DNA of 61,437 bases, filler included. It is 10 parts of 10 records of this genome, joined end to end, with 100 filler letters (N's around TTAATTAATTAA, not from the genome) between each part and the next. Parts side by side here need not be neighbours in the genome. Positions count along the whole stretch, not along the records: positions 8,892 to 12,891 come from SRR15195285_1455; 9 more parts are not named here. One strand, 5' to 3'. Below, one piece after another: positions 1-50,834 of this stretch. The translations under genes and the position numbers were made by a program. Every line of letters starts with the position of its first letter. Positions within the stretch are counted from its first letter, which is position 1. Below the pieces are notes generated by a model. That model had not been told where the DNA came from and searched no databases. It saw nothing but the letters and a program-made list of their open reading frames with translations.

Positions 1-188
1 GGTATGCCCCCATTTTCCGCGCAACATGCCCCCAATACCAAGCGCCGGGACGCATTGAAAATCGTGACACACTGGGCATACGACCGCCGTATGCCGTGTG
101 TGCGTGAAACCACGACCGCGGACGAATACGCAAATTGGACGAGCAAGCACTAAACGAAATCGTATCGAAATCGACGTCGCAGTGTAAT

Positions 189-235
189 TGACATAGGGCA
201 TAAGGACGGCATAAGGGCCCTTATGCCCTATGTCA
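189..235. repeat. Nested inverted repeat / hairpin
   Basis: TGACATAGGGCATAAGG (189-205) is the exact reverse complement of CCTTATGCCCTATGTCA (219-235). It overlaps a perfect 20-bp palindrome GGCATAAGGGCCCTTATGCC (208-227). Confidence 0.9.
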
Positions 236-445
236 TCGTCGAAAAGCTAATAAGGCATACTTCCAATGTGCACTAGTATTGATTGATCCCAATAGCCGAG
301 ATTTCTTGTCCAGTGCAAGATGCTTAGTGACCACAAAATCGCGCCCTCCAACAATTGCCATAATTGGGGATCTGTACCGATGGAAATGTTGCAGTAGTGG
401 CAAGAATGAAGTTACTTTTACTTAACCCGTGCTTCTCGTCGCCTT

Positions 446-3173
446 TTACGCATCACATGTCTGCGGCGCGAGGCTGCAGCAGACACAAGAGCACAGCAGC
501 ATCCATATGCATACACCGACAAGCAGAGCATCAGTGGTGTACATCATTCGCTTACGGCGTGGAGACAGGATGGGCTTTTGCGTACCATTTGCACTTGCCA
601 GAGGACTGCAGCGCCCTCGCAGGGACACAGCACACCATTGATTAGACGACTTTCGAAACTGGCAACAATTAATCAGAAAACAGCAAAATAATCTGCTGCG
701 AGACTCACTTCAAACGTAGCGAAGAAACCGTTCATGGGAAGATTGGTCGAGGCGGAGAGCACAGGGCAAGCTGCAGGACGGCAGATCTCCAAGCCCTTGT
801 GGACGGCTTCTTGCGGGCAGCAGCTGTCGCCCGAGAAGGGCCAAGCGTAACGGATGGCATAGACTACGTCCAGCACCACCACGCGCAGCTGATCAGTGAA
901 TACAAGCGCTTGGGCACGTGAGTGAAAGAACGCACCTCCAGATGCGGAGCCATTGACGCTACGGAGATCGACGCTCAGACTGTGGGGCACAGGGCCTTTG
1001 GTCACTGTCGCAGGCTGCCAGATCGCTTCGTACGGGTTTCGATTTGGAACCCAGCCCAGCCCTGCGGTTGCGCCGCCTCGACCGCTAGTAAATGCTACCT
1101 TGCTCTGTGCTGCCTCAGAGACTGCGGAGGAGTGGCGCTCAATAGAGAGCTGAGTCTGCTGCTGCGACGGCTTCCAACCTGGTCCGACCTCGCAGTACCA
1201 AAGCGACTGATCGTGACCATGATTCGTCGGATCCTTTGGATTGGGTATGCGAAGGTATGCCCAGCCGGAGCAAGCACAGCTCGACGCGTTCGCAAGCGTA
1301 GATTCGAGTTGGCCCGTGCAGACCATCATAGTCGACGAGTCGTCTCCACTCCACGCGGAGACATTGATGTCAAACGGCTGAACCAATACATCCTCACCGC
1401 CCATCCTGTCCGGGTCTAGGCTCACGCTGATGGAGGCCTTCGCGGAGTCCAATTTGCAACCAGCGATCGTCGGGCCGGAGACGTTTTTCATCAGTGCCAC
1501 CGCTAGGCGCCGCCCGACCTCATGCTTAAATCGCGGATGGATACCTGCGCCACCACGCAATGTTGGATTTCAGCAAGACTTAAGAAGGCGATACTGCAGC
1601 AGTGAGAATTCCATGCAGTGTTCTCTGTCTGATTGTACAATGATTTTGCGTGCGTGGACAACGTACCTCCCATGAAGATTGGAGTAGCAGACGAATTGAC
1701 CAACAGTGGCTCGATCTTGCGCACCTCCGGTGCCCAAGCCGCTTTTTCGATCGGAATGCACTCGGGGTCGAATTTGCTAGTAGCAGGGTTGACGGAAGAG
1801 CAATTGGGCCGTCTGAGCGAGGGAGAGCCTTCGTTGGCGGACCAAGGGTCACCGATGTCATATGCCTGAGCGAGGAAGGTACGAGGCATGGCTGGGGAGG
1901 GCAACGCGCCGAAGTTGCCTGTCTGTGACCAGCGCATGTGGGCCATGTGGTCTCCTGCACCTTCAGATCCACCTGAGGCCAGTGTAACTATGCCGAACGG
2001 CGCCAGCGGGTCGGTTGTGGAAGACGAGGACCACTGTTTGCGCCAGAGTGAGACTAACGCGACCTGATCGCAGCCGTATCCGACTTTGTTCATGGAGTTG
2101 CCCATGTCACCTGTTAGCATGCGTGCGATGCTAATGAGACACACATCCACGGAGACTAAGCAACGCATTACAGGTTGGCTGGCCCGTTCATTCACCATGG
2201 CTCAATCAGTGAGTGAACGGGATGGTCAGTGAATGGGCCAGCCGGACTCATGGTGAGAAATGTGCAGTGGACGGGCCTCACCATGGCAGTTATTCTCCCC
2301 CTGGTACCACGCCCAACCCTCAACGCTCATATTTACGAATGGCGTAATCATGCCGTAAAATAGCTTGGACGTTAGTGCGTAGCCAATATTTTGCGACGGG
2401 TTCGACGCGTTCCACGCGTAGCCACTTTCGTTCGCACACGTTTTAAGCGTTTCGTTGTCCAGATATGCTTCGATCTGCATGCCACCCACCGCAGACTGGA
2501 TCAACCCGATGGGTGTCTCTACTCCAAGGTCAACGAGGCCCACACCGAAGTAGGTGCATGTGGCAGAGAACGCCTCAAACGGGCGCAACTGGGCATGGCC
2601 GCCCTTGCTTGGCGGGGATGGGGCAGCAACTCCGTACGACATGTTGTTCCATGGCACTGCCCCGTCAGTGGTGGCGTATTTAGGAGCGTCAGCATGGAAG
2701 GTCGCGGCGTCCACACTCATACCTCCGTATAAGAACGTGCGGATGTTCGTGTACTTGCCAGCGCGGACTGCAGCTTCGAGCACCGGCCGCGAGAACGAGT
2801 AATGCGTTGCCAAGGCCATATTGGACTGGCCTGAGCACAGATAGACGCTCCCGAAAACGACCCGCTCGAGTGAAATGGCAGCTGCCGGCGCGCAGCCTGC
2901 ACAGCTGGCGCTGATCGTGTACTCGTCGTGCGAGGCTTGCGCTGGCTTCAGGACCGCGCGCCAGATGGATCCGTTGACGCTGATCGATGTCGTAGTGGCC
3001 GCCACTGTGTAGTCCCCGGCTGGCCCTGTGACCTTCACCGTCACCGCCTCGCTTGCCTTGAGCGCCAGACCGTACACAGCCACGCCTTCGCTCTCGGTCG
3101 CCTGCAGCACCATATCGCTCGAGAAGCCAGCGCTCCAGCTGATCGGCGGCGGCGGCGGCGGCGGCGGCGGCGG
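446..3173 (-). CDS. Sialate O-acetylesterase-like (SASA/SGNH) protein, 5'-truncated, six exons
   Basis: Motifs VYLCSGQSNM, WYQGENN and GIHPRFKHEVGRRLA. GT-AG introns at 2111-2281, 1545-1666, 864-935 (in frame, less certain), 606-708 and 474-585 restore CHGDMG, FMGGIHP and ESSGKCKCLAPQTCDA*. The frame is open to the contig edge (poly-Pro). Confidence 0.85.
3144..3173. repeat. (CGG)10 microsatellite at contig end, poly-Pro on minus strand
   Basis: Read directly; the assembly breaks inside it. Confidence 0.9.
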
Positions 3174-3273
3174 NNNNNNNNNNNNNNNNNNNNNNNNNNN
3201 NNNNNNNNNNNNNNNNNTTAATTAATTAANNNNNNNNNNNNNNNNNNNNNNNNNNNNNNNNNNNNNNNNNNNN
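3174..3273. other. Artificial contig linker 1
   Basis: N44-TTAATTAATTAA-N44, stops in all six frames, identical to the eight other copies. Confidence 0.98.
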
Positions 3274-4881: not shown

Positions 4882-7749
4882 TCATTGAATGCCGAGCGCC
4901 GACACGGGAAAGACAAGCTTCCGCGCACACATGTTCGCAAGCAGCGCACCAACGTCGCCTTTGTCCTTACCGAGCGTGGCTGCATCGCCTACCATTATGA
5001 GTGATTTGCGCCCACGAGTCAGCGCGACGTTCAGGCGCCTCGGCTCGGACACAAATCCGATCGATCCGCGCGCGTTCGAGCGAACAAACGACAGTACGAT
5101 CACGTCCGACTCCGCGCCCTGCGAGCCATCGACAGTGTGCACAGACAGCCCGCCACCACCGGCTTGTGTCGCTGTGGCTGTTTCCCCGGCTGTGCCTTGT
5201 AATGGTGCTGGCAACGCACTCTTGATGCTGCGCACTTGTGCTGAGTAGAACGTCAGCACCCTTAGCTGGTCTGGATCGGTCACGTCCACTCTCCAACGCT
5301 TTTGCAGATGGGTTACAATCCACGCAACCAGTGCCGCCTCTGGTGGGCTGCACCTCGACCCGCTGGCGTCTACTGCCTCGTTGCCACCATGTCCACTCCC
5401 GATATCAATGAATGCGCAAGGACCAAGCCATCCGATGCCTCCCTCGCTGCACCATGGTGCCAGGGTTTCAGAAACACATGGAGCATCACAGAGCTTGCCA
5501 TGATAGAATCGTGCGTTCGGGAACGATGATATCTCTGGATGCATGCGATACTGTACAGAAAGCAGCGAGGCTGGGCGTTGGCAGTCGATCATCAACCTTG
5601 CCAGCAGCGGCCGCCCAAGACCAGCCTGGTCTGCGCCTTGGCTGCAAATTGTCGCGCCGAGCTGTTGGGGGTCGCCAGCTAGTAGCAATCGTTTCGGCGA
5701 CAGAGATAGCGGGATCAGGACTTCCGGCTCCACAGCCTGAGCCGCCTCGTCCACTACCAACACTTCCACAGACTTCATCGTGCGCACTACGTGCGAGCCC
5801 GCAACGCATAGTGTGCAAAACACTAGATCGGCGCTCGAGAGTAGAGCCTGAACCATCTCCATGTGTCGCGGTCCAAGTGGAAGGAAGCTGCCAAGTATGC
5901 CAACCAGCCCACGCGTCGCTCTAATGACATTCAGCAACTTAGTCTCTAGCTCCACACCATACACCTCATTTACGCAGCCCTTCTGTATCCCTTGCGTCAA
6001 GCCTGTGTTGACAGTGTTGTCGTTATCTGGATCCTCATCGACATCATCAGCACAGAGTGCGATCGCCGCTGCAGTTGCCGCACGGAAGTCCGTTCGCAGC
6101 TCAGCTCGGTAAAATTCTGGTGCTGAGCGCTTCATTCGCCGACGGCATGATGCAATTGTAGAGACTAGTCGAGCAGCAAACAACTGAATTGCTGCTGGCA
6201 TGTTCTCAGCGCAACTCGTGAGCCTTGGTCGATGTGCAACGTTCATCACCACTGATGCAGACGTACTGGGGTCACTACAGCCGAGCTGCTCGGCCTCCAG
6301 AGCTAACCGCGAGAGCCGATGATGCATTGCTTCTGCAAACGTGTAGACGAAACAGTCTTCTCGCACCGATCGGCGCTCTACCGGCCCCAGCACAGGCTCA
6401 TGCTCTTCTTCCGTATCCACTTGTGCGCCACCAAGACCCATCGTCTCTATCGCATTGAACAGCTTTGCACCGTCACCGACAAGAGCAACAGACAGCGACG
6501 CATCCCGTGGTGTTGCAGTCAACAGAAAGCGCGTGAGCAACTCTGCCACACCGCGATTGGATGGTGCGCACACAAGAGTACGCGGATTGCCGCGTCTGCT
6601 GCAGTGCATTGCCTGTAGCAGCGCCACGACGGTTGTCGTCTTGCCCGTGCCAGGCGGGCCGTGCAGCAGCTGGAGCGCGCCTGGGTTGGCTTTGCTGTCA
6701 GACGTGTCCGCGCCTGCCAATTCGGCAAACTGGGCTGCTGCAGAACGCTGTGGGAAGTTCAGATCGCGCCATGCCGCCTCAACAATGCCATCCAGCTGCA
6801 TGTCTCCGTGTTCAGCTGGAGGACCGATCTCCGTTTCACCTTCATCTTCGTCTTCCTCTGACGAAGAGGTCGAGCCAAACTTGATGTGCTCGCAGGTCTT
6901 ATCGCCAAGGATCTGGTGCATATAAGGCGGCGACGGTGACCTCTGACACACGTCGCACATCCGCTGCTCCGCCAGCAAGCTGGCCACGCCCCAGCCAGCC
7001 ACGCGGCCGCCATTGGCTTCAGCCGCCAGCCGAACCGCCGCAGCGGCCGCCGCGGGCATCTCTAGGGTGAAGTATCCGCCAGTGAAACCCTGTCGGCCGT
7101 CGATGCCAGCAAGGCGACCGTCGCCGCCCAGGTACCGCTTCGCCAGTGCATCGGGCCTGCCGCCCCGACCGAATCTGCCTCCGCTGCCTCCACGTCCACT
7201 AGGCGCACCACCACTGCGCCGACCGAATCTGCCTCCGCTGCCTCCGCGTCCACTAGACGCACTAGTGTCATTTGTGGCGAGCAGCCAGATGCCCCCGGCC
7301 CGGCACGCATCGCGCAGCCGTGGCATGTCGGTGTCGGCGACACGCTCGGCGCGCACGCGCACTGATTCCAACGCTCCCTGCTTCGACGACCTTGGGCTGC
7401 CATTACCGGCGCTGTCGGCTTCCTGCGCGTCAATCTCCAGGGTGTACGCCCGGCGTTCGGTCCGTGACAAGCCTTCTGCGACTACGGCGCGCGCCTCCTC
7501 AATAACCAGCTCCTGCATGCACGCATAGTACTGCGCCGCAGTGCTGAAGCGGGCTGGCGTCGCCGACAGTGTCGGCGGCGCCTGTGGGCACAGCTTCGAA
7601 GGCTCCATCCCGAACAGTCGCGTGCTGAGTAGCTCCACGCCACTCACAGGTCTGCGACTCACCCGCTGGCGCTTCCCGCCGCCGAACTCCGCGCGCTCCG
7701 CCCTGCGCCTCTCACGCTGCTGCGCGTATCGCGGGTGGTTCGCAGCCAT
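4882..7749 (-). CDS. Sen1/senataxin-like (Upf1-like SF1, DNA2/NAM7) helicase, 955 aa, apparently intronless
   Basis: HGPPGTGKT (Walker A), LVCAPSN, VVDEAAQ (Walker B), GDPQQL, LSVQYRMHPEI, FYSAQV, TVDGSQGAE, RRLNVALTRGR. Confidence 0.92.
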   Translation of the reverse strand: MAANHPRYAQQRERRRAERAEFGGGKRQRVSRRPVSGVELLSTRLFGMEPSKLCPQAPPTLSATPARFSTAAQYYACMQELVIEEARAVVAEGLSRTERRAYTLEIDAQEADSAGNGSPRSSKQGALESVRVRAERVADTDMPRLRDACRAGGIWLLATNDTSASSGRGGSGGRFGRRSGGAPSGRGGSGGRFGRGGRPDALAKRYLGGDGRLAGIDGRQGFTGGYFTLEMPAAAAAAVRLAAEANGGRVAGWGVASLLAEQRMCDVCQRSPSPPYMHQILGDKTCEHIKFGSTSSSEEDEDEGETEIGPPAEHGDMQLDGIVEAAWRDLNFPQRSAAAQFAELAGADTSDSKANPGALQLLHGPPGTGKTTTVVALLQAMHCSRRGNPRTLVCAPSNRGVAELLTRFLLTATPRDASLSVALVGDGAKLFNAIETMGLGGAQVDTEEEHEPVLGPVERRSVREDCFVYTFAEAMHHRLSRLALEAEQLGCSDPSTSASVVMNVAHRPRLTSCAENMPAAIQLFAARLVSTIASCRRRMKRSAPEFYRAELRTDFRAATAAAIALCADDVDEDPDNDNTVNTGLTQGIQKGCVNEVYGVELETKLLNVIRATRGLVGILGSFLPLGPRHMEMVQALLSSADLVFCTLCVAGSHVVRTMKSVEVLVVDEAAQAVEPEVLIPLSLSPKRLLLAGDPQQLGATICSQGADQAGLGRPLLARLMIDCQRPASLLSVQYRMHPEISSFPNARFYHGKLCDAPCVSETLAPWCSEGGIGWLGPCAFIDIGSGHGGNEAVDASGSRCSPPEAALVAWIVTHLQKRWRVDVTDPDQLRVLTFYSAQVRSIKSALPAPLQGTAGETATATQAGGGGLSVHTVDGSQGAESDVIVLSFVRSNARGSIGFVSEPRRLNVALTRGRKSLIMVGDAATLGKDKGDVGALLANMCARKLVFPVSALGIQ
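7166..7264 (-). repeat. Coding tandem duplication (54-bp period) giving two SGRGGSGGRFGR units
   Basis: GAATCTGCCTCCGCTGCCTCC[A/G]CGTCCACTAG occurs at 7171 and 7225. Confidence 0.9.
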
Positions 7750-7753
7750 CGCT

Positions 7754-7881
7754 GTTGATCGCTATGGTTCGCTGGAGCTGGCCGGTTGGTCGCTACGTTT
7801 CGCTGGAGCTGGCTGTTTGATCGCTACGTTTCGCTGGAGCTGGCTGGGTGGTTGACCGCTACGGTTCGCTGGAGCTAGCTG
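7754..7881. repeat. Minisatellite, four 31-bp units immediately upstream of the helicase ATG
   Basis: Units at 7754, 7785, 7816 and 7851; consensus GTTGATCGCTACG[GT]TTCGCTGGAGCTGGCTG. Confidence 0.92.
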
Positions 7882-8891: not shown

Positions 8892-11800
8892 CTTGGTGCA
8901 CTCCTCGCGCATGAACCACACGAGATTCGAAAAGTAAGGAACAGCGCAAGGAAGCACCATATCAGGCTTTCCCACTGCAAAGATCTGCAACGTGCACTGC
9001 CGCACCGCAACTCGAACCTCGGGATCAGTATGATTGTAATGCGATAATATTAAGACCTGCATCGAACGACAGCCGTAAGCAGAGCAGCATGTGGGGCGCG
9101 TGGGGCGAGAACAAGCACAGCCAATGAACTCACAAGAAGTCGCTTGCTCAGTAACGGAATGGTCCTGTCGTCCAACTGGGTCGTCATCATTTTGACGAAT
9201 TGGCCGTCAACTGCATCGGTCGGCTGGCTGGAAGGAAGCTGGGGTCCAAAGTTGCCGAGAACATGTTCCAGAAAAAGGTGCTGACAAACATTTGCAGGAA
9301 GAAGCTCCCTCGCTGTGGCATGTTGCGCTGGCTCAAGACTGCCGAGGAATTTGGTTGCCAACTCAGCTAGATAGTCGGTCCCAAGATTGCTCACGTGCCA
9401 TGCTTGAGCACCCCTCTTCAATTGAACTGGCTCCTCTTCGTGACCTGCACTCAACTGCACCAGATGTTTGTTGGGCCCAAATAAGGCCCATTCCATCCTC
9501 GCATACGTAGCTTCTCCCATGCCATCGACGTGAATGCAGGTTCCAGCCCGCACTTGGTTGTCTTCTTCTCCGTTCTGTTGCTCCACAAGCTTGGCCGACT
9601 CCACCATGGCCTCCCACTGTAGTTGCAACGTTCTCTCTGGCCGTCGTCGAAGGTGCAGCAGTAGCTCCGGGTAGGCCTGTGTCGTCTCAAATGACACGTA
9701 CTGCCGCCCAAAATTGTGACCAGACGTTTTCAGCCGGTGGTTTTGACTCCAAAGCAGGTCTCCTTCGGTGCCTGTGACAGAGTGGTACAGCTCATTAGGT
9801 CCAGCCTCCGGGCGTGCCGGCGGACGCTGAAAACCGGCAGCACCATGGCGTCCAACGGGCGGGCCCCACTCTCCACGAAGCCCGGGCTCAGCGCCAGCTG
9901 CGTTGGCTGCGGCATCCCCGCGCTCTGATCGGCAGCGAGCGCCAAAGTCTTTGCAGTAGCCGAGCGCTACTTTAGCAAGCAATAGGTCAATCTTAGGCGC
10001 AGCGGCCAGCTCTTGGTCTGTATTGCCGTTCAACCACCCACAGCCGTATGCGACGGGATATATGGCGTGTTGCGCAAAGTACGTGCCGGCGCCATACTCT
10101 CCACCGCCAAGCCGCGGATCAAAACCCACCGTGCGCGACATAATCACTTTTTCCACCACTTCCGGCTCTGCATAATGAAACAGTTCCATCTCGTTGACTG
10201 CGTCTTCTCCATACTGCTGCGCCAGCTGCTTTTTGAAGTCGCAGTATTTGCGCCACAACACCTTGTTCTGGACTCGTTGCACACCAATGAGCTCGAAGTC
10301 TGCCAGACTCTCGGCGATTCTGTCCTGGAGACCCGCCCAAAGCCTAGGCTCGACACTCTTGTCAACGTCCACGAGCTCAACGTCGTGTCCATCGTCCATT
10401 GTTGTCCATGGCTGGTCATTGTGTCGGCTTGCCGCAATAATCTTGCACACACGCTCTGCACAGGCCTGTGCCACGTGCTTTTGTGCCACCTGCTTTGCTT
10501 GGTCACCGTGGGCGGTGTCGATCCGTGCCAATTTGACTGCGTCCAGAGCATCAATTTCGCCATTATTAAAGTGCAGCAGCATCGCCTGGAAGGTCAGCAG
10601 CCGCATCACGATCTCCTTCACCGTCAGTTCCTCGCTCAGCTCGACTGGTGGCTCAAGCATTCTGAGAAAGCTGCGAGCCTTTGCGACAGACTTAAAGGAC
10701 ACCACGTCCGGCAAGTCAAGCAGGTCAGTGCTGCTGCCTTCGACCACCTTGTCGTTCTCGAACCTGCCGTTGACTTTCCCATCTCGCAAAAGCTCGAAGA
10801 AGCTCTGTGAGAATAGACCTGGCACCCCCTCTTTGTGGCCGTCTTTCTTTCCCCTGTCTTGCATTTCGATAGTAATGGGGAATATCGCCTTGACGACTTG
10901 GCGCTTGTGCAGCTCGATTGCAACGATCCACTCCATCAGCACAAAATCTTCCTTATCGGTCTTCCCTAGTTCGACAAAGCCACGCAGACAGCTGCCCGAC
11001 AGCAACGGAGAGAATACAGTCGAGTTTGCCAGCCCGTGAATGAAATTTTGGTCGAAGCGCTGGCCGTCCACAATTCGGACCTTGTCAAGATACACTCGCA
11101 GACGATTTTCACGTCCAGGGCGCAGTTGAAGCTTGGAGGCCTGTGTGTACAGAACCTCGGCAAAATCCTTGTCGCACCAGACGCGGTAGGAGATGAATAG
11201 ACCAAATTGCTCGTTGCATGAAGAAGAGATGACCTCCTCTAGCGCAGCTGTCATGTCCACTGCTGAGGTGAATCGCTGTGTCAGGCCCTTCTTCAGCGCA
11301 CGATCTGTGAACTCAGAAATGCTGTCAGAAACCGCGCCAACTTCTTGGATCGCGTGAGACAGCTGCACAGCCTGCTCGTTGACGACGGAAAAGAATATCT
11401 TGTTCCTGTCGCTCTCCTCCGGCGCGAAGGGAAGCACGCCACTCAACGCGAAAAAAACGACGACGCCTAGGCTCCACAGATCAGTCTGTGGCGTGATCTC
11501 TTTGCCCACCTGAATCTGCTCTGGGGACATAAAGTGCGGTGTTCCAGCTAACGCCTGCAACGTGGCTGTGCCTGTCTGCATTGTCTTCGAGACCTCGTCC
11601 CTGGACTCGCGCTCGACGGCGGAGATGGAAAAATCGATCAGCTTGTGCATAACGCGACCGTCGACCCCCGTCATCATGATGTTCGAGGGCTTGATGTCGC
11701 GGTGGATTACGTGTTTACTGTGCATGAATTTCAGGGCCGACAGCACGTCGAAGACCATCTGAACAACCTCGAATTCGCGCATTCGACCATCCGGCGCGTT

Positions 11801-12454
11801 CTTGATACGTTGTTGTAGGCTGCCCTTCTCCAGCAACTCTAACACCATTCCGAACAGTTGGCCGTCGTCAGAGAGATGGTGTTCGTACAGCCCGCACACG
11901 TGTGGGTGCGCCACCCGCTGCATCAGCGCTGCTTCTCGCGCGAGCTTGTGCGGCTCGTCACCACAGGAGAACTTCACAGCGACTTCGCCGACATGACTGT
12001 CCATACTGCGGAACACCACACCATCAGCGCCGTGGCCGAGCTCCTGCTGGTCCAGGACCCAACGCCGCGGGTGCCACCTGTCCAGCACTGTCTGGAGCCG
12101 GAGCTGCCGTTCTGGTCCTGTCGTTGCGAGCACGGCCTTCCAACGAACGCTCAGCGGTGTCAACCCTTCGCGGGGTGACACAGCCGCCGGTGCTCGGTGT
12201 TCTGCATCGCTTCGCAGCTGTGCGCCTGCCTCTAGCAGACGCTTCGTGGCCTGCTCTGCATCTTCCTCTAGCACCCCTGTCAGCAACTTTTGCAAACGTT
12301 TGCCTTCCCCCCCCATTTTGTGCATCAACTCCTTTCCATCTAGGTCGTCCTCGACGAACTCTTCGCAGATCCTGGATGCGAGCTGTCCGTCAGCCGGCAG
12401 GTCGAGGGTCGTCACTACCCACTGAACGGTCTGGTCTACCGTCCACGACTCCAT
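8892..12454 (-). CDS. SAM - Ser/Thr kinase - TIR - PARP-like ART - CLEC16A/FPL-like fusion protein, 3'-truncated
   Basis: SAM: WTVDQTVQW...DLDGKELM. Kinase: GHGADG, VAVK, HRDIKPSN, DFS, GTPHFMSPE. TIR: FISYR, VYLDK, DFVLMEW. PARP: RVQN, NEMELFH, YGAGTYFA, LLAKVALG, QYVSFETTQAYP. Intron 9057-9133 (GTGAGT...GCAG) continues the frame into HYNHTDPEVRVAVR...AVPYFSNLVWF. Confidence 0.9.
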
Positions 12455-12891
12455 CGGAACGACGGCAGCGAGCGTGCTGGAAGGGTCCTTGGGCTCCGTC
12501 CGGACAACGGGACTCGGAGCCCGCTCCGCGCCCCGCGCCCACGCCCTCAGAGCCAGAGGGCCGCCGCGGCGCCGGTTAAGGAATTCGCCGTGCGGCAGCG
12601 TCTACCAAGCAGTGGTTCCCACCCGTCGCCCTGCTCGGCACATGGCATACCGTCCCGCTGCAGATCAGCTGTAGCGATACACGCCGAGGACCTGATGTCT
12701 GATGCGGTCACCGTGAGATTGGAAGAGCAGGACGATCCACCCCCAACCTGAAGTCCTGAACCCGACCATCGATCATTTTCTGCACCAGGCGCCGGGTTCA
12801 TCACAAAAAAATACAGAATACAGAATACATTTGGCTTACAAAGACACAAATGATTGACGCGAGTAGTAGTAGTAAAGATGATTTATCACAC

Positions 12892-13170: not shown

Positions 13171-16100
13171 ATGGAGGGTGCACAGATGGAGCCGGAGCCG
13201 GAGCACGGACCAGGGGCGGCGGCACCCGAAGAGGAGGGCGGCAGGCTGACTCCGCGGGATGTTGTCGCAGGTGATGGTATAGCTCTATCCCCCGGCTCTA
13301 TCCGACGCCCGTCGCGCACGCTGTCCTTTCCGTCAGAGAGCGCGGCGTCAGAGGGCGCGGCTACGAGGGCCTCGAGGCTCCGGGAGGCACCGAGCAAGCA
13401 CTTCAAGACTATGCTGACCCCTCAGAATCGGAGCATGCTGGGGAAGATTGAGAAGCAGAAGGCCGACCAGAAGCTGCAGGCCAACCAGCTCGCGGATCTG
13501 CAGCGGAAGCTTGAGAGGGAGGCGCGCGTGATTGAAGCGACCATCCAGGCCACGGATTTGACGGAGCGAGGCCCGCTCTCAGGAGAGGTATCCAAGGCGG
13601 TGTGGAAGCGCATGATCCCTGTCGCAATCAAGGAGGACAAGAGTGGCGAGTGGGCAGGCGACCTAACAGCTGAGATGCAGCTTTTCCTCGACCTGCACCA
13701 TCCGCACATTGTGGCATGCTATGGTATACTGAGAGAGATAGGCTCGGACGGCCATACCCTCACCTCTATCGTCACCGAGAGGTGCTCCTCTACCTCCCTG
13801 GACCACTTTCTTCAGGGCAACGAAAACTGGATATGCTTTAAGGGCGCTGGCCGTCTCAATCAAATCAACCTACAGAAGGCAACAATTCTCCTGCACGTGA
13901 GCCAAGGGCTGGAAAAGCTGCATGACATGAACGTCCTGCACTGCAACATCAAGTGCGGCAATTGCATTGCTCCTTGGCATTCACGCGAGTATTTAGTGCG
14001 TTGCTTGTGATTATTGCTCGCTGCAGGTGCGGAAATGTGTTGCTGGACGGTGCCCCGGGTGAATGTGGCGAGTGCCACCACTCAGGGAACTGGAAGATCT
14101 GTGATTTCGGGGAAGCGAAGTTCCTCAACCCACCATTCGTTCGCTTCGCGCCCCCAATCGCGTGGCGCGAGGATTACACGCACAGCCTCGTCGAAAGCAA
14201 GCGTTTCCTGCCTGTGACGTCGTCACACCTTCGGAGCAAAGGCGCGAGGTTCTACTGTTATATCAAGCCTGGAGAGACGTTGTCCTCCACTGTAAGCAGC
14301 GAGGAATGGGTCCCGTGTCCACATGGTGGCTTCGCGTACCTCTTTGGCGATCTCGAGATGACCGAAGCAAAGGTGCTCTCCAATTTCGACGAGCGCAGTT
14401 GCGTCTTCCCCCAAACATTTGACGACGCGAATCAACAGCACGTCGCCCTTGATTTCCCCCGTCATCTCAAGCAGTTCGGAATCTTACCCGTCAGGTGAGT
14501 CTACACACTAGTCTACGGACCCCAGAGCGCGTGTATCGGATGGGGATTCTGTGCCTCCCACCACAACTAACGCCGAGTCACCGCAACGCCGTCAAATAAC
14601 CTAGATACAAACCGTTCCTGAACCTGGAGGAGGGCGAGCTCACTTATGAGATGCCTACATCGATAGTTGGCTGGCTCACGGCTCAAGGGCTCGGTGATGC
14701 TGCGCGCATCAAACAGTGGGACGCGATCACACAAAAGCTTGGTCATAACTGTGGCCTCCAGAATACGCTGTTAGAGCTATCGCAGTTGGAGCCAAGTGTA
14801 ATCGCGAACATTGCAGAAAGGATGGAGCTGGATCATCAGAGTCGATCGAGCATGATGCAGGCACACCAGAGTCTGAGCGACCTCACGGACAAGGCGACGG
14901 TGCAACTTGCGGTGCTGGGCGAGATTTTCGGCGACGTGATCAAGGGACGAATATCTGAGGCTTGCGACCTCCAGAATCTCACCGAATCTCTTCGGCGAAA
15001 GGCAAAGATCCCCAACGAAGCGACACACTTTGTCTGGGCGTACCAAGCTGAAGGCGGCGTTGTTGGCGCAAGGGAGGGATTTGCGCCGGGCGTGGGCTTG
15101 CTTACGCCGCCTGAAAGCGTCGAGAGCGAGCCGGGCTGCGACAACCAACCAGGAGCCGAGCAGTACCTTCCTGCTCATGTGCAAGATGCAGTTGCGGCGG
15201 CCAAGGAAGAGGAGGCAGCATGGGTCGACGTTGAAAGTTTTTTCACTGACGAGCAGAAGAGACTTATCGATACATCCTCCGGCGAATTTTCCTTTGTTTC
15301 ACAGGGTAGCTTCATTTACTTCAAAGCTGGCGCAGCAGATCGCCCGATGGTTCTCGGCATGAACGCCTTGGGTGTAGGCGAGAGTCTGCACTCGGGCACG
15401 ATAGATCGCGACGGCGTGCGTCAACATACAGCATACACCTGCCATCCGGTCGCCTAGGGCTGCCAAGGTAGCCAAAGACAAGCGTGTGTTGCCTCAGTCA
15501 TCACTTTCCGCGCATCTCGTGTTGCAGGATGACAACTCCATGACAGCGACGATAGCAAGCCCGGAGATGTGGGACGGTTTTGGTGCGTGAACAATGTCGC
15601 CAATACAACAGCTCTAATTCCCAGGTTCCAGGTGCGAATTGATCTTGGACTCGTTGTGTGACTTCGCAGGAATTGGCTTGGAAACAGACATTTACGCTTT
15701 CGGGATCTTGATGTGGGAGGTCTGGACCCGCTGCAAGGCCTGGCATTGGATGGGCGCCAACGCAGAATTTCAGATTTGCAACCGCGTCGGGATACTGAAG
15801 CAGCGACCGCGTATGCCGCCGTTTGTCGGCACACACCAGGCGCGACTCGCGGCGATGATTCGTTCGTGCCTTCACCACAACCCTGAAAAGCGACCGACCG
15901 CTGCACAGCTCGTCGAGGCGCAGCTGAACATGCACAGAATGATTAGGCACATTAGTCAGACTAGACCAGGTCCTGTACGCGAGAGTTCGGAGCACCTTAA
16001 GGGCGTCACGAGATGGACAGACGCTGTCACCAAAGATTTTGCAAGCTCATATGGAGATCAGCCAGATAACAGACAATTCTGGACGAGCGCTGGACAATTT

Positions 16101-19100
16101 ACTTTGCATCCAAGTCACTATGACAGCGACTCGGGGAAGTTTGCGCTCACAGTCACAGACCCCGATCGAAATGAGTGGATTGAAAATGCTCTTACGGGCG
16201 ACGAAGAGACCCCTGCTGAGTTGCATGCACCTAGAGAAACTTTGCCCCTAGAGAAACTTGGTATTGTGTTCAAACGTGTACACAGGAGTACTGGAGAAAA
16301 GATCGACCACTGGCCGAACATCGCCCATGTCGACGAGAGGTTCCTGGCAGCAGCATTCCCTGAGATCCGCGTGGGTGTGAAGCTAGAGGAAATCAACGGT
16401 CAGCCAGTTCCCAGGAGCTTTAAGGAGGCAGTGCCGCTCTTGAGGAAACGCCCGTACTCACTTCAGTTTTCAACGCTGGGAGATGCAGTCGAGTCAGTGT
16501 TGGCGCCATCGAAAACATTTGGCGTGTATGCACCGATGGTTGCAGCGGCCATAAAAGCTGGCATCCAGGCAGCAGAAATGGTCAACAGGTTTGAGACTGG
16601 TAGGTTACACCGCCAAACATTTCAGAGTCTAGGAAATCTACAGAAGTTAGTCTCTGAGAAGGACGAGCAACTTGAGAAGCTTCAGTCGCAGATGCTCGCG
16701 CTGGAAAGCTCCGTCAAGCAAGCGGACGGGCATAGTCAGACTACAGAATCTACGGAATGGGTGAACTTCTGCTGCGGACACCGTGGTTACTTTCAAAACA
16801 CAGACAGCAAAGGCGTGACACTGGTCAGGCCGTCAAGTTCATCTATATCTGTGCAAGAATGCGTAGAGTGTACAGCCGATTGTATCCACAGCAATTGCTC
16901 CAGAAAGTTTCAGTGCTGGTTTGAGCAAGCTGGGCGACAAGACAAAGAGCGCGCGGTCTCGAGCAGCTCTACTGTGTCCCCAGTGGCCACAGAAGAACTC
17001 AAGGAAACCCTGCGCCGAAGCGTTGGAGGCAATTGGGAAACAGACCTTACGCAAGACCTCGGCATCGAAATTGTCTCTCAACTCCAATTTATAACAATCG
17101 AGGAAATGCTTGAACACTACGGCCAGCGGAGTACTTCGGTGAACACAGAACTCGTGCAAGCAGTTGAAGTAGCGACGCGCACCCAACAATTCGTTTCAAG
17201 CGAGCAACTGGAGTCGTTTGGACATGCCGCAAAACTGGAGGAAGATCGTTTGAAAACAGAAAAGGAAACCTTGCTGCGCATTCTTGAGGCCATGCAGGCG
17301 GCAGCTGGTGGCAGCTCAGTGTCCGCGAACTACACCGATCCAGCAAAGACCCTATATCTTGCGATCCAAAGTGGTGATCATGCAAAGGCCGAGAGCATAG
17401 TTTCAAGTGCCAGTCAAAAAGATTTTACGTCACCGTCGAAGTGGGAAGGTAGACACTCGAGACTGCACGCAGAAGGTGGGAAACAGTTCTTAAGAGACGG
17501 TGAAATTGTGCAGAGTGAAGCTGATGCAGACGAAGCCACGAAAGGCATGTGCCTGGTCCACGTATTGGCGCGAGACTGCACGAGTTCTAACAGCGATTTG
17601 ATCAGCACAGCAGTTGGCAAGAGCATGCCTTCGGAACATTCTGAGTGGTCGAAATCGTCCTGCATCCTGTTTGCAAAATATGAAGACAGTCGCGCGGCTG
17701 GGCTAAATGTCGTTCAAGGATGGTCTAGGAGAGCTTCAGATGCAGGCAGTGGTTCAGGTCGGCAGTACTGGATACCACTCCATTTTGCAGCCCGGTACAG
17801 CACCAGTGTTGCGGTGATACAGTCGTTTTTAAAGTTCTACTCAAAAGATCAGTTGAGCTGTGTCGATGCAAAGAACCGTTTGCCGATGCATCTGGCATTT
17901 CAAAACCCAAACAAAGATGTTCGAGACGCAGTGTTAGAAGAATCCAGCAAGTACCATTTAGATCTGCCCATGCGAATCTGGGTCGCATTGCGAGACGATA
18001 ATCTACAGCTGGTAGAGCGTTATGTCCGTGATGCTACGGCTGAATCTTTTGCAGAGATGTCTCATTGGAATCACATGGACAATGGGATCGTCAGTACCAC
18101 TTCTACTATAGAGCTTGGAGGTCCACATGCGCCACGGCTTCCTGCTGCGAAAGCTACGGAACGTCTTTTTGCACTGCATGTCCTTGCTCGTGATTGCAGT
18201 GACGCCAGTTTGATCCAACACGCCATTTCTGTCGGCGGACCCAAGCTTTTGACTTTGGAAAGTGCAGGACCCGAACAAGCTAGGCCGTGGGACGCTGAGC
18301 AGTTTCTGCAGCTGCGACCAGTCCATTATGCTGCAATCTACAATCCAGCCGCACTTGTGATGATGGAACTTTTGAAGGTCGAGCAGACAGAGCAACTGGA
18401 AGGCCGGGGGCTGCTACATCTATCCAGCTGGGAGAAACGAAAGATTCCCTCACCTATAGAGCTAGCAGCTGTATGCGCTAAAAGTCCCGGTGTAATTGAC
18501 AGTATGCTATCTTGCGACAAACACTCGACATTCAATGATCAATGCACGGATTGTAAACAAACCGCTGCACGCCGACTGACTAAGAGAACTCGACGGAACA
18601 TGCTTCCCATTCATCTTGCTGCCATGTTCAATCCCAGTGTTGAGGTGAAAAACATTCTAGTCAAGAGGTGTGAAAGTTCACTTATGCACAAGGATATAGA
18701 CGGGCGCACGCCAATTCATGTCGCTGAGGCGTCTTTTGATGAATCTCTTCGACGGTGGCCTCGTTTGTTGGGTGCTTTGATGGGCCGGTACAGCATTGAT
18801 CCCGGACCTGCTACTCACTGCAGCCGGTCTGCACATGTTCTGAGTGGAAAAGATGAGCGATGCCCGATAGAGGCGCCGGTCAAACCAAGCTATATTGCTG
18901 TAAACGCTGACGCTGACAAGATTACTGTAGATGATCTCGCAGATCTATCTCCAATACCTGATATCTCCATTTATGCTTTCTTCACGGATGATGACTTTGA
19001 CCTGGAATCTCAAGGTTCCTCTCCGTTCAAAGCCCTGGGAGAGATCGAGTACATCAATCCCGAAGAGGAGTCCGTCTGGGTGCGCTTACTGTACTCGTTT

Positions 19101-21641
19101 TCAAGCTTTCGCCTGGTGTCATGGGACAAACTTGGTGACATGGTGACTTCTATCGATGATTTAGTCGAGGGAGCGGAGTCAAAACTGGCCCGAGAGGAGC
19201 AACTGCGGCAACATAAAGCGTGGGAGAAAATCCGACAAGCTGGCATTGCGATCAAAAAAATGAAACATAGGGAGCACTTTGTAGCTGAGATCAACGCTCG
19301 GTGTCTTCCCGACGGCAGTCTTCTGGATCCGAGCGCAGTCATCGAAGTTTTGGGGTGGCACATACCTGCAGCTCTTGAATTGTCGTTGGTTGATATTGCA
19401 GGCCGCACACCGGAGCAAGAACCATCAACTGACACAAATTTCCCTTATGTATTGATTATGGCACGTGGTGACCGATCTTTGCATGACGCATGCGCAAAAG
19501 AGCGCATTGCTGGGTATGATTTCCAAAGCATACGACAGGCCATCACAGAAGTGCTGCTCTGCATCAAAAAACTTCATGATTCTGGACTTTGCCATGGAGA
19601 CATTAAGCAAAGGAACATTCTGCGTGTGGGGAATGATGATGGTGATGGTGACGGTGATGATGCAGAAAAACAGTGGATTCTGTGCGATATGGATGCCTCC
19701 ACTCAGTTTGGTCAGCCTATTGGAGCGAAAACCTCTTCAGCTTATGCACCCCCAGAGCTTGCACAAAGAAAATTGACCAAGTCCAGTGAAGGTCTTGGAG
19801 TTGTTGAATCTGCTGAGCCAAGTTTCGATATCTGGTCAGTTGGAGTCGTCATCTTTGAGCTATGTTCCGGCAGGACCCTGTTCAGCCAGGACACAAACAA
19901 TGATGAACTGATCGAGTGGTCTGCCTGGCAGATCCTCAGTACGTGGCATACGATCACCGACGAGCAACTGATGCCGGTGCTTAAGGACGCCCGTACCCAA
20001 GATGGCGGAGTAGTTGACGCCACTACTATAAAAGCAGCAAAAAATCTGATCCGATGGTGTCTCAAAGGCGATTCAGCCGCACGGCCACAGAATATTGACC
20101 AAGTCATATCTCATGCGTTTTTTAAAACAGGTCAACAGGTGGCCAGGAAGGCAGGTGTCGAGGAACAATTTTTGACATTTGAAACCATCGCCGAGAGTGC
20201 AGAGGAAATCTTTCACAAGTGGAAGTGTCCTATCCAACGTAGACTGCTGCCTCAGCAGTATCACGCGTTCATAAGCCATTCGCAGGCTGACGCTAGCGGA
20301 ACAGCCAGCACGCTATACTATGCATACAGAAGATCTGGAGTACATGCGTGGCTGGATATGCGTGAAAAAGATGTCACTTTGGCAGGCATGCGTAAGGGGG
20401 TATACGACTCAGACATTTTCGTTCTAATATTGTCGCAGCACGTACTCGCACAGTGGTTTTGTCAACAAGAGATACTCGCCGCGCTTGAGTTTGGAAAGAA
20501 AATTCAGATCATACTGGAACAAGAACAGCGGTTCTTTCCATTTGACGTTGCTGCGTGGACTGCGGTCAGACATGCCATGAGCCAAAACGATGGTGCATTT
20601 GAACCACTCAGCTCGCCGGCAAGCATTCGAAGAGATACCAACTCAAAGGGTCTCTTTGTGCGTATGGTCAGCAACACGATCAACATCCCAACTGAAGTGC
20701 CTGAACAGATATGTAAAGCGATCGACGAATGCCTGTCTGACGCGATTACATACCGCCGCCGCGACTTTGAATTTGATGCGATGATGCATGCGTTATGTAA
20801 ACGAAATGGGTTGATCCTGTCAGCTCCACCCAGCGCACAATGGCCACCAGGACGCGCGGGTGACATCGACGTATTTGTCATTGCCAACGACCACTCTAGT
20901 GACGTGTTAGTAGAGCTTGAAACAGAACTGCAATCACGGTCTCGAGAGCGGATCGCCGGACGCCTCAACTTCATCCGCGCGTCTCCACAGCCTGAACCTA
21001 CTGCTCTAAGGACTGCAGACTGTATATTGCTGTGCTTATCGCGTGAGATTTTGCAAAGCCCGTACGTCGATCAGCTCGACTACGCCATCAGACTCGATGA
21101 GCATGCAGGGATCGACCGCATAACTGCAATTTACAGTGAAACTGCTGGGTGGTCGTTCGGCTGTCCCGAACATCGCAGCGCACGTGAGGAAATACAGCAA
21201 TGTCTCGACGCCCACGAGGCCCTAATATTTCGCCCGAAGGCGTACGACACAACATGTGAGCATGAATTTCCCGCTATGGTGAGACAATTAGAGAGACGCT
21301 TGTTCACGATCGCAGGATCGAAGAAGTCCCTCCCAATTCCGGCAAGTGCGGTTTCGAATTCCGAGCCTGGAGCACCCTCGCGGATTAGAGGCAGTTTTGT
21401 TGCTGAAACGGATGCCTCAGAAGCCTTGCCTCCGTCGCGCGTGCAAAACTGGAGCGAAGAGGACCTCGCCACGTGGCTACGTGACGTAATGAAGCTCGAG
21501 ACTGTGGCGAACGCGATGTTGGCTGAAGGAGGAGTGGATGGAGCAGCTGCCTTGATGATGGACAAGGACGACTGGAAAAGCCTCGGGGCATCGGGATTGA
21601 AAGCCTCAAAAATTATGTCACAGTTGAGCAAGCTGCAGTAG
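13171..21641 (+). CDS. Giant multidomain protein (~2,695 aa): pseudokinase with large insert - PDZ-like - coiled coil - ankyrin-like repeats - kinase - TIR - degenerate TIR - SAM
   Basis: Exons 13171-13952, 14027-14494, 14605-15415, 15528-15582 and 15670-21641 (all GT-AG; total 8088 nt, in frame). Kinase 1: VAIK, HPHIV, HCNIKCGN, DFG, ASPE, DIYAFG. Ankyrin-like: PLHFAA, PMHLA, PVHYAA, PIHLAA, TPIHVA. Kinase 2: HGDIKQRN, CDMD, YAPPE. TIR: FISHSQ, WLD, FCQQE. SAM: WSEEDLATWL. The start codon is uncertain because the frame is open upstream. Confidence 0.88.
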
Positions 21642-33808: not shown

Positions 33809-36800
33809 TTATCTGCCCGCGGAGATTTGGGCCAGAGCAGCGATTGACTTGGCAAACATATCGCGGTCTGCCACCTGGTGGAAAATTACACGATGTGAGA
33901 AAACCATGCAAGCCGATGACAAAACTTCTGGTGTGCATGGATGTACGCGGTCTCTGTTGGTACTACCGTGGTCGCACCATTTCTTTCTGAATGGACTCCA
34001 TCGTTGCCATCATGGTGCGAAGCTGCGCCTCCCTTGCATTGTGCTGGGCTACCACAATCGCCGTCATTTCCTGATGAAATTCATCAGTATCAGCCAACGT
34101 GTCATTCCAGTCAGAGACGACAACATCGCCATCGATGGAGAGGTACGAACATCAATGGAAGGGGAGGGGGGGGGCAGACCTCATAAGACGTTGGATCGCC
34201 ATCGACAGCCCTCTTCTTTGCCACCAGCACGTTGCGTTTTGCCTCTGCAGCAGCTAGCTCTTCCTCCGCGCTCGCTATCTGCGTCTCCAGGTCCGCATCA
34301 TGCACCTTAGCTGCAGCCTCGTCCGCAACGGCATTGATTAGGATGCCTTTTGCTTCAGCAGAGCGCTTGGCCTTCCTAGAAAGTTTCAAACCTGTCCGAG
34401 CGAAATGCCGGATGCGAATTTGCAACTCGGGGTACTCTTCGGTAAGCGCGATCATATCCTCTCGCCTGATGAAGCCCAAGTCCGTGTCAACGCTCGCCCG
34501 AATCGTGCGTGTACGGACTTCTCTCTCTGAACCACCTTTCCCTTCAAGGGCTTCCAAGAACGGTGTCTCACCGAAGAAAGAGCCTTCGCCAAGAAAGCCA
34601 AGACGCTCGTCGTCTTGTATTACTTCCACCTCGCCGTCTGTGATAAAGTAGATCTCTGTGCCAACCTTGTTCTGCTCCATGATGATCTGGCCTCGTATAG
34701 CCGTCATCGGATGGACCATGCGGCAAAGGTGAGTCATCAGCTCCGAGCCGAGATTACGGAATATGGGCAGGCCTGACAGCACATCGCCGTAAAGTGCCTT
34801 GCAGACATCACCACCAAGAGACGGTGGCAGCTCGTCCAGAATTTCCTGCTCATTGAACGCCTTGGATCCTTTGTTGGCAGCCTTGTAATAGGACAGGATC
34901 TTTCTCTGGTCCTGCTTCGTGAGACCACGCGCGGCTATCCACGCTTTAAGCGACTGCAGTTTCGCTGTGTACTCCTGGTCACCGGCAGCGAGACCCATGA
35001 GGAGAGTTGAAATTACACCAGCCAGTGCACCGTAGATGAAACCCGTGATGAGAATCGACATCATCAAGAAGCCATGCTCAGCGTCGGTGAACGCAAACGA
35101 GCAGTCGAAGGAGGAAAACATAGCTATGATGTAGCGCGTCCCGTAGCCGATTACCATCGGCTTGTACTGACAGGCGCCGGCTGCCGCACACTTTGCTTTA
35201 TCCTCGTCCTCGTCGTGACCAAAGCTGTTCTTGCGCGAGACGGTGGCACATGCCGCGACCACTGTTGCAGTTGCATCGTCGTCGGATGGCTCGCAGGATG
35301 GGTTGAGGTCGGACTCGGTCCAGCCTTTGCCCTCTGGGTTATTCACCCAGCCTTGCACAAGGTTGCCGGCACCGTCGATCTGCTCGCCCGAACCAACCAT
35401 GTACCAGAAGCAGGCCATCATGTGAGCCATAAATACGATGCTGAACAAAGTGAACAGCAGCCCCAAGTACTGGTTCGCATCGAACTGATCCTCGTACTTC
35501 TCGAGTATCTTCTTGACACGGGCGACACGAAGAAGCTTCGCTAGACGCAGCAGACGTAGAGTCTTGAATGCGCGGAAATTAGAGTTGCTTGTGTCGGCAT
35601 CGGGGTTGGCAATCTCCGCGAACACTGAGATGTAGCCCACAGGGAGGCACGAGACAAAGTCAATCAAGAACCAACCAACGGGAAAGTAGCCCCCCCAGAG
35701 GTCTGTGCCCCCGCCAATATAGTTCTTGCGAATAGCAACGAGGTCTCCCTCGAGCGTGCCACGGCCGTCCCAATACGCCGTGCGGAAGTTCAAAAAAAGG
35801 TCAGCGATGAAATACAGGTCAACGACGACGTCGAACCAGAAGGCGAAGCTATCGACGGGTGTTGTTATCTCCATCGCAGCGCGCATAGGCACAATGTAGG
35901 ACACGTAGAGCAGCGCGAACACCTGTGCAATGTCCCACTGCGTCGAGAAATCCGAGTCAGGGTTTCTTACCCACTTCGGAAGTGGTTTCTCTTCAAAGAT
36001 GGAACCGGAGGAGGCAGTTGGGTACAGCGCATGGATACTGCCCCAGCGCTTCGACATTTCCACCAGCAGGTACAGTCGCGGCCGAAGGAACGTCCAGAGC
36101 TCGGCGCCACTTCGCTTGCGATCACTGGGCAACATGCCGAGCGCCTTGTTCGCGACGGTGATGTCGTTGACTTTCGCCACCATCGACTCCGGCAGCACGG
36201 GGATGTCTGGCTCGTCATCGCCCGTTCTAGAGCGCCACCAGAACTCAAACTCTGCGAAGGAGACCTCGCCCGTCTTTGATCTGTCCATTTCGGCAAAATC
36301 ACGTTGCAGGTCGAAGGGCGGCTCTAGTTCTATCTTCGGAAACTTCTTCTGCAAGAGCTTGTGCATCTTGGCCACCTCGTCGATGTCGAGGGTGCCGCCG
36401 CCGTCCTCATCAATTTCATTGAAGATTTCCCTTGCTTTCTTGCGCGCGGCCTTCAGCTCATCGTCCTTCTTCAGAAACCACCACTTCTTGAACTGGTTGA
36501 ACGTGACTTCGCCCGTGTTCAGCCGGTCCATCTGCGCGAAGGCGTTGTGCAGCTGGTCGGCCTTGAGGTTGTCGCCCATAGTCTTTGCCATCTTCTTCAC
36601 CTGCGAGCCAGAACAGGAGCGCGCGTGTCACGGCGACGCTGAGCCGCGGCCAGCGGGACAGCTCGGTCGCGCGCTCTCACCTCATCCTTGTCCAGCGTCC
36701 CACTGCCGTCCTCATCCAGAGCAGCGAACGCTTCGCGCAGCATATCCTCTTCTGCTTGCTTCTTCTGCATGACTCTCTCCACCTGAGGGCACGCACACGC

Positions 36801-50500: not shown

Positions 50501-50834
50501 CACACTCGCCACTTGCGGCCAGCTGCAGTGGCGCGCTACCGTTTCGTGGTGGCCAAGGCCACAGCTGCGTGTGGGCAGATCCAGCGCATGGTGCGAGGGT
50601 CAGCTTCCCCGCCCCACCTCCTGCAGTGTGGGTGGTCGTCTCGTTCTGAAAGTAGTCGTACTGCAACACCCCAGCAAAGCTGCTCTGCACCTCGCGTGTG
50701 AACAGTGCCGCTGTAGGATCCGGCCCCGAGAAGGCCAGGCTGCCCATCACGTCGCCACCCCGATCAAAGCCGGAACTCTCGGCACTCTCCATCATCATGA
50801 ATGCCACGGGGAGCACGCTGCACCAAAGTATCAT
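47539..50834 (-). CDS. Secreted fusion: ricin-B lectin + six-hairpin glycosidase-like domain + alpha/beta hydrolase
   Basis: Signal-like MILWCSVLPVAF. QxW repeats (TQLW, VQLYQCLGTPNQRW). SMWPRDG. Hydrolase LVFLHGWPD, THDSG, AGHW. Intron 47581-47687 gives the terminal AEINAAMALWLAD*. Confidence 0.7.

Follow-up and report, generated by a model that had tools for sequence, protein, structure and literature searches.

SARM1, with the order ARM-SAM-TIR, is a TIR enzyme that carries SAM and helical-repeat regulatory modules. In the integrated-decoy nucleotide-binding leucine-rich-repeat receptors (NLRs) of plants, such as RRS1-WRKY, an immune receptor has a copy of a host target fused into it, and the genuine gene for that target is retained. 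Members of a third family, CLEC16A/Ema/GOP-1, are defined by the domains FPL (PF09758) and CLEC16A_C (PF19439). In PMC5461019, GOP-1/CLEC16A is described as acting in Rab2 activation on phagosomes and endosomes, and human CLEC16A as able to substitute for GOP-1. Here we analyze a candidate fusion gene on the minus strand of a 4000-nt contig, which forms part of a 61437-nt stretch of DNA (the window) from the draft assembly of a marine protist. A long reading frame with protein kinase, TIR-like and PARP-type ADP-ribosyltransferase domains runs there into a predicted intron, behind which lies an exon that, by its sequence, is CLEC16A-derived.

The downstream exon (exon 2) and the database protein P0003, whose start is identical to it, align with canonical CLEC16A/Ema/GOP-1 members from the end of FPL onwards. 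As in that family, P0003 passes the CLEC16A_C threshold, and the intron position is common to the closest canonical genes. Unlike in canonical CLEC16A, the first ~120 FPL positions are replaced by ~1100 residues of kinase, TIR-like and PARP sequence; there is no Pfam FPL match, conservation is relaxed and a canonical copy (P0017) exists alongside. The contig gene, if spliced as predicted, would resemble SARM1 in joining a TIR-like domain with SAM-like and helical modules, and RRS1-WRKY in carrying a copy of an own protein while the canonical gene persists under the same assembly label. It differs from SARM1 and the plant NLRs in having no NB-ARC/STAND domain, another domain order and an added kinase and PARP domain, and an immune role would be by analogy only. 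A literature search, judged by titles, found no description of such a CLEC16A-kinase-TIR-PARP fusion. CLEC16A paralogues and multidomain TIR/PARP/kinase proteins are both of already-known kinds; their fusion appears to be unusual.

Results

The contig in question occupies 8892-12891 of the window, exactly 4000 nt, and the sequence to the left of 8892 is unrelated. On its minus strand the frame 12601..9050 (P0001) is open over 1183 codons and, without splicing, ends at a TAA at 9052-9050, 27 codons past a splice donor. An earlier reading of the letters alone (the original prediction) had placed a 77-nt GT-AG intron at 9057-9133 with the stop lying beyond it, and we found the intron as it was described. 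The proposed intron (9133-9057, minus strand; donor CTT/GTGAGT, acceptor GATGCAG/G, a slash marking the boundary) has its GT at 9133-9132 and its AG at 9058-9057; it is of phase 0, the upstream exon closing on a complete codon. Joining 9134 to 9056 would link AAGCGACTTCTT to GTCTTAATATTATCG, and the peptide quoted in the original prediction is correct on both sides of the intron. Donor GT, acceptor AG, frame, size and signals are as expected for a spliceosomal GT-AG intron. Preservation of the frame alone proves little, because 9 of the 14 GT dinucleotides within 9313-9056 are in phase. The GTGAGT at 9133 is the sole GTRAGT in the 4000-nt contig, both strands counted, and over the tail, with its 60 in-phase sites, the expectation is 0.03.

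The position of the intron could be compared with canonical CLEC16A genes. The four closest canonical proteins (P0015-P0018), called as open reading frames (ORFs) without introns, all open as M..Q/TE(I/T)IKFY, their starts being MAALLTQFWRVQ/TEIIKFY, MPAQ/TEIIKFY, MSCCADTETALRPQ/TEIIKFY and MQ/TETIKFY. All of these ORFs open just before the residue homologous to the V of /VLILSHY in exon 2, and the preceding codon is Q (CAG). Because the closest canonical ORFs (4/4) look as if an acceptor CAG stood at the homologous site, the comparison suggests, indirectly, that the 77-nt intron goes back to this clade's CLEC16A gene. More distant canonical CLEC16A genes continue straight through the site (..MPLLTE..). 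A related canonical CLEC16A contig, L001, has three GT-AG introns of, by reading, ~85-95 nt. As a separate observation, this sequence (1-3227, a high-GC metagenome contig) has no intron at the site used by our contig and its closest canonical relatives.

Exon 2 (9056-8892, minus strand; 54-55 residues) translates as VLILSHYNHTDPEVRVAVRQCTLQIFAVGKPDMVLPCAVPYFSNLVWFMREECTK and ends only where the contig ends. For its comparison with CLEC16A we built our own profile from the N-terminal 330 residues of 8 canonical CLEC16A proteins with Pfam FPL, out of 12 proteins found via the FPL region of L001. With hmmsearch, exon 2 scored 32.3 bits (E 3.8e-12) at profile positions 168-220 of 314, and P0003 scored 112.9 bits (E 6.3e-37). 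The first 36 residues of exon 2 alone reached 26.7 bits on a sub-profile, a score attained by none of 2000 shuffles (maximum 8.5). This diverged part (8950..9056, minus strand, 35-36 amino acids (aa)) corresponds to the last quarter or fifth of FPL. The remainder (8892..8949, minus strand, CAVPYFSNLVWFMREECTK), cut by the contig end, is canonical-like, with 19 of 20 residues identical to P0017. The collinearity of exon 2 with canonical CLEC16A extends over the AVPYFSNL motif as well as the end of FPL. Judged by these alignments, exon 2 is CLEC16A-derived, and the hidden exon of the original prediction is real sequence of the origin proposed there. The description of it as an added FPL-like domain stood only in part. 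Exon 2 starts at the equivalent of residue 133 of the canonical protein P0012, so that ~27 of the 148 FPL profile positions are clearly kept, and what would be added is most of the CLEC16A body, not an FPL domain. The motif AVPYFSNLVWF, quoted in the original prediction, falls after the end of Pfam FPL.

P0003 is a 544-aa database protein with the label eukprot COSAG02_NODE_3043_.._3, and it scores 55.2 bits for Pfam CLEC16A_C (PF19439; cut-off 22 bits). Exon 2 is 100% identical (54/54 residues) to its start (residues 3-57), and P0003 runs on for ~490 aa with PF19439 beyond the contig end, outside the window. This identity implies that the gene continues beyond the window. When P0003 was compared with the window by tblastn, only 57 residues matched, at 9062-8892, and the remainder lay on no other contig there. 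BLASTP of P0001 against P0003 gave nothing below E 0.8. A metagenome scan with P0003 found one relative, L001, at 58% identity, which encodes a canonical CLEC16A with the full FPL region.

A separate canonical CLEC16A gene, which the original prediction had proposed to look for, was found under the same assembly label (P0017, eukprot COSAG02_NODE_2524_.._5). The identity of P0003 to P0017 changes sharply along the protein: by residues of P0003 it is 13/35 (3-37), 19/20 (38-57), 36/44 (58-107), 93/100 (108-207), 87/100 (208-307), 91/99 (308-407), 86/100 (408-507) and 22/24 (508-531), that is, 37% over the first 35 exon residues and then ~90%. Over the first of these ranges P0017 and P0018 are identical at 38 of 39 residues. 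In the variable middle, P0003 is nearer to P0017 (87, 91) than to P0018 or P0015 (71-72, 76-79). P0003 and P0017 also share 10 of 13 residues in an apparent read-through of an intron after PDLYR, which points to duplication at the DNA level. At 180 columns that are invariant in the other proteins, P0003 differs at 14 and P0017 at 4. We also considered whether the 3' part of P0003 is the canonical gene of a second genotype; this was rejected on the 14 changed columns out of 180. In our reading P0003 is a mosaic of two parts that meet at ~nt 8950, namely an old, strongly diverged FPL remnant and a CLEC16A body that evolves faster and is either young or recently converted; any gene conversion would have extended up to ~nt 8950.

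The proposed exon 1 (9134..12454, minus strand) begins at the probable start codon, an ATG at codon 50 of the frame (MESWTVDQ), and runs up to the donor. The choice of this ATG is supported by the database ORF P0004 (1134 aa), which begins there, and by the relative P0005, which begins at the equivalent place. The order within the exon is a SAM-like stretch, a kinase, a TIR-like domain, a PARP domain, a post-PARP module and a 46-aa tail. The Pfam cut-offs used were 31.7 bits for Pkinase, 28 for TIR_2, 26.7 for PARP and 26.1 for FPL. The protein kinase domain (aa 185-446 of P0001; 11264..12049, minus strand) scores 143.7 bits (E 8.9e-42) for Pkinase; by eye, its HRDIKPSN loop is present and the DFG position reads DFS.

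The TIR-like domain (aa 469-582 of P0001; 10856..11197, minus strand) scores 18.6 bits for TIR_2, below the cut-off. Sub-threshold TIR_2 scores occur at the same relative place in 4/4 family members (P0001 18.6, P0005 14.8, P0006 21.2 and P0007 20.0 bits). The look-alikes of the domain by protein language model were all TIR clusters (0.92-0.94), which we take as a lead only. No sequence in the PDB matched it, a PADLOC match was at chance level only (E 0.048), and an AlphaFold2 (AF2) model from a 4-row alignment was unusable (mean predicted local distance difference test score, pLDDT, 40.3). Pairwise BLAST against the clear TIR domain of another frame in the window, at 15618-21638, was not significant. 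Taken together, the recurrent sub-threshold scores and the look-alikes indicate that the domain is likely a TIR domain. On that other contig lies a second kinase-TIR gene, with a 2007-aa frame (15618-21638, plus strand) that contains a protein kinase (E 9.1e-26), an above-threshold TIR_2 (E 6.7e-14) and ankyrin repeats; a second kinase fragment lies where the frame starts. The recurrence of kinase-TIR proteins in the assembly hints at a possible expanded family.

The PARP-type ADP-ribosyltransferase catalytic domain (aa 768 to ~985; 9647..10300, minus strand) scores 30.4 bits for Pfam PARP. It is matched by 45 PDB sequences, the best being PARP12 (E 1.2e-08), and the best solved-structure matches, PARP12, PARP14, PARP15 and tankyrases, range from E 1.2e-08 to 1e-05. 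Unlike these proteins, the contig gene has by eye Gln at the third position of the NAD-binding triad (H-Y-Q, with His and Tyr present), an insert of ~50 aa and quite different domain partners. A Gln at this position would suggest mono-ADP-ribosylation or no activity. The insert, rich in Gly, Ala and Pro, lies inside the PARP domain and is conserved in P0005-P0007; it was considered as an unspliced in-frame intron and rejected as such because it is conserved as protein in these relatives.

Nothing beyond the post-PARP module (aa 986 to ~1110; 9272..9646, minus strand) is shared across the kinase-PARP family. BLASTP alignments of P0001 with P0005 and P0006 end at aa 1086 and 1096, and the extension to an LPA..F motif was made by eye. 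No Pfam family was found for the module, possibly a small domain not yet described. The core of the module, G-T-x-[IV]-x-[IV]-x-G-x-G-x-G-T-Y ... G-x-N-x-H, was also seen in the unrelated environmental proteins P0008-P0010, twice in P0010. The exon ends with the 46-aa tail (LEHVLGNF...IPLLSKRLL; 9134..9271, minus strand), which is unlike the armadillo repeats of the relatives. Against the canonical CLEC16A profile the tail is collinear but weak (FVKMMTTQLDDR on profile positions 135-146, -0.9 bits, E 0.047), which is suggestive only; the tail could be what is left of the CLEC16A exon ahead of the conserved intron. With phmmer at full sensitivity, aa 968-1156 gave five matches among 1.84 billion representatives, confined to query positions 1-130 (aa 968-1097), none over the last 59 residues and none to CLEC16A.

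Three environmental proteins, P0005, P0006 and P0007, have the same domain order (SAM-like stretch, kinase, TIR-like domain, PARP) and the same PARP insert. By BLASTP, P0005 (1556 aa) aligns with P0001 from the N-terminus as far as aa 1086 at 60% identity, and P0006 (967 aa) as far as aa 1096 at 68%; P0007 (845 aa) is 55% identical over aa 968-1097 by phmmer. Past the shared region P0005 has Arm repeats (E 1.7e-12), at the place where the contig gene, unlike it, has a CLEC16A-derived part. P0006 has there a sub-threshold ARM_ARMC5 match (21.7 bits against a cut-off of 79.9) that is ARM-like by eye, and P0007 ends shortly after the post-PARP module. The C-terminal module thus varies within the kinase-PARP family, which points to a swappable module.

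Parts of the window were also present in 13 DNA runs, of which four were compared contig by contig. Run X1 matched with 100% identity at 9068-9290 (record 1), 10219-10397 and 12487-12644, and with 2 differences at 9365-9624. Record 1 of X1 spans most of the intron together with the tail, and it takes in only the last ~18 bases of the LPA..F stretch, which by eye is shared with the relatives. Record 18 of run X4 covers 9056-9208 with 4 differences; by reading, two of them lie in the intron, a third is synonymous and the fourth changes Leu to Val. These pieces of X1 and X4 indicate that the exon-1 tail and the intron exist in environmental DNA. The pieces from the four runs leave 8950-9055 and 9291-9364 uncovered, with no joint reported among them; the gaps count neither way.

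The window as a whole chains at least 10 short contigs, as 10 segments separated by nine N-TTAATTAATTAA-N spacers (at 3218, 8836, 12936, 22498, 26428, 31747, 37373, 41383 and 46849). The segments are not physically linked, and arguments from gene neighbourhood across the spacers are therefore invalid. Other segments hold ordinary eukaryotic genes, including a RING protein. On other contigs than the one studied are a superfamily 1 (SF1) helicase (AAA_11/AAA_12; 4885-7761, minus strand), an EF-hand/ion-transport/cyclic nucleotide monophosphate (cNMP)-binding channel (34114-36627, minus strand), BBS7 (44389-46383, minus strand), whose presence implies that the organism has a cilium or flagellum, and a frame of 1310 aa (47550-51479, minus strand) that includes a ricin-B lectin domain.

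Discussion

We consider it fairly probable that the locus is a real spliced fusion gene. It would be a lineage-specific fusion in which one transcript encodes the SAM-like stretch, the kinase, the TIR-like domain, the PARP-type ADP-ribosyltransferase and the post-PARP module. Once the 77-nt phase-0 intron, at a position probably inherited from the CLEC16A gene, is removed, reading would continue into a CLEC16A-derived helical body that has lost the first two thirds or more of FPL and that would comprise at least ~530 residues past the intron, mostly outside the window. The CLEC16A part would have arisen by duplication of the organism's canonical CLEC16A gene at the DNA level and would evolve faster than the canonical copy; its 3' portion may be young, or recently homogenised by gene conversion up to ~nt 8950, and the upstream FPL remnant would be old. 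The exchangeable C-terminal helical module, armadillo in relatives and CLEC16A in the contig gene, may serve as the partner-binding part. The CLEC16A-derived module could then have a targeting role, in which it would bring kinase, TIR and PARP to the partners of canonical CLEC16A, in animals the Rab2-dependent machinery of phagosome and endosome maturation. The place that the original prediction gave to GOP-1/CLEC16A in phagosome and endosome maturation agrees with PMC5461019.

Several observations weigh against a spliced fusion. All 13 runs with parts of the window are DNA and none is listed as RNA. The Pfam FPL hit that the original prediction anticipated was not obtained: the exon 2 peptide had no FPL match and no match at all (E<=1), and separate scans of the 60-aa exon-1 tail (E<=10) and P0003 gave no FPL match either, while in the same scan canonical P0012 scored 166.8 bits for FPL over residues 13-158. 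The profile score of the tail was reached by 15 to 72 of 2000 shuffles over four cuts (p 0.008-0.036). P0003 itself starts with MQ/ (MQVLIL) at the ATG 9062-9060, 6 nt inside the intron, as an intron-naive gene caller would place it. The locus might instead consist of two unspliced neighbours, an arrangement that we regard as unlikely: the kinase-TIR-PARP gene would end at the TAA 9052-9050, and an N-terminally truncated CLEC16A duplicate would lie directly downstream, either as a young pseudogene or as a separate protein from the ATG 9062-9060. An intron-naive caller gave exactly two proteins, P0004 and P0003, but as independent genes their ORFs would overlap by 13 nt, with no room for a terminator or promoter. 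In-frame GTs are common (the 9/14 above), yet the donor in question is the sole consensus donor in 4 kb, is in phase and stands just upstream of a conserved acceptor position. The relaxed conservation of P0003 (14 of 180 invariant columns against 4) is as in a decaying copy; its frame has nevertheless stayed open for 544 codons despite ~10% divergence from P0017, for which a rough estimate gives about 1 in 20 without constraint. The likeness of the tail to CLEC16A is weak, as separate genes would have it, but the 46 aa are open and unlike the C-termini of the relatives, which fits a linker into a new module.

Other points of this kind concern the assembly. A false join of a kinase-PARP gene to a CLEC16A paralogue, or a jump between CLEC16A copies at 8949-8892, would produce the same contig, and we think such an artefact quite improbable. 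Labels of the COSAG/SAG and NODE_length_cov type suggest that amplified single cells were co-assembled, a setting in which paralogues can be falsely joined. P0003 probably derives from the data that also underlie the contig and is not independent support. Identity to P0017 leaps from 13/35 to 19/20 at ~nt 8950, 58 nt before the contig end. Record 17 of X4, from a marine metagenome, shares 55 of 57 nt with 8893-8949 and then diverges completely upstream; by hand translation it reads PGVEKFVLDR before CAVPYF, the canonical type of P0015, P0017 and P0018. The contig thus shares its last 57-58 nt with the canonical gene. They form a place where an assembler would break or mis-join, and the identity jump together with this shared end is what a repeat-induced branch in the assembly would be expected to produce. 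A random join, on the other hand, is not expected to give an in-phase consensus donor, a collinear tail and a homologous acceptor position. No independent contig passes from the intron into exon 2 (record 1 of X1 stops at 9068 and record 18 of X4 at 9056), and no independent piece crosses 9056 or 9291-9364; record 1 of X1 does unite the tail, most of the intron and ~18 bases of the family-conserved stretch. The 3' part of P0003 is, moreover, the faster-evolving copy and not canonical P0017, and a jump between copies would for this reason need a third CLEC16A copy.

If the locus is the spliced fusion that we favour, it might function as an integrated-decoy or guard sensor, in which a phagotrophic marine protist has wired a fast-evolving CLEC16A copy to kinase, TIR and PARP enzymes; we hold this to be doubtful and to have only a small chance of being right. 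Interference with CLEC16A by prey, a parasite or a virus would in such a sensor trigger NAD-consuming or ADP-ribosylating signalling, and module exchange would diversify sensing. Two features bear on the idea, namely the canonical copy P0017 under the same assembly label and the faster evolution of the fused copy.

Were the contig an artefact or the duplicate an unspliced neighbour, the case would be an ordinary one. If the spliced fusion is real, a single polypeptide would unite a conserved factor of endolysosomal and phagosomal traffic with three signalling enzyme domains, and the organism that makes it is probably phagotrophic. The gene would then clearly exemplify the exchange of modules through an intron within the protist kinase, TIR-like, PARP family, and would offer a handle on which portion of CLEC16A suffices to bind partners, most of FPL being dispensable in the fused copy. 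It would also give a handle on whether decoy-like architectures exist outside plants.

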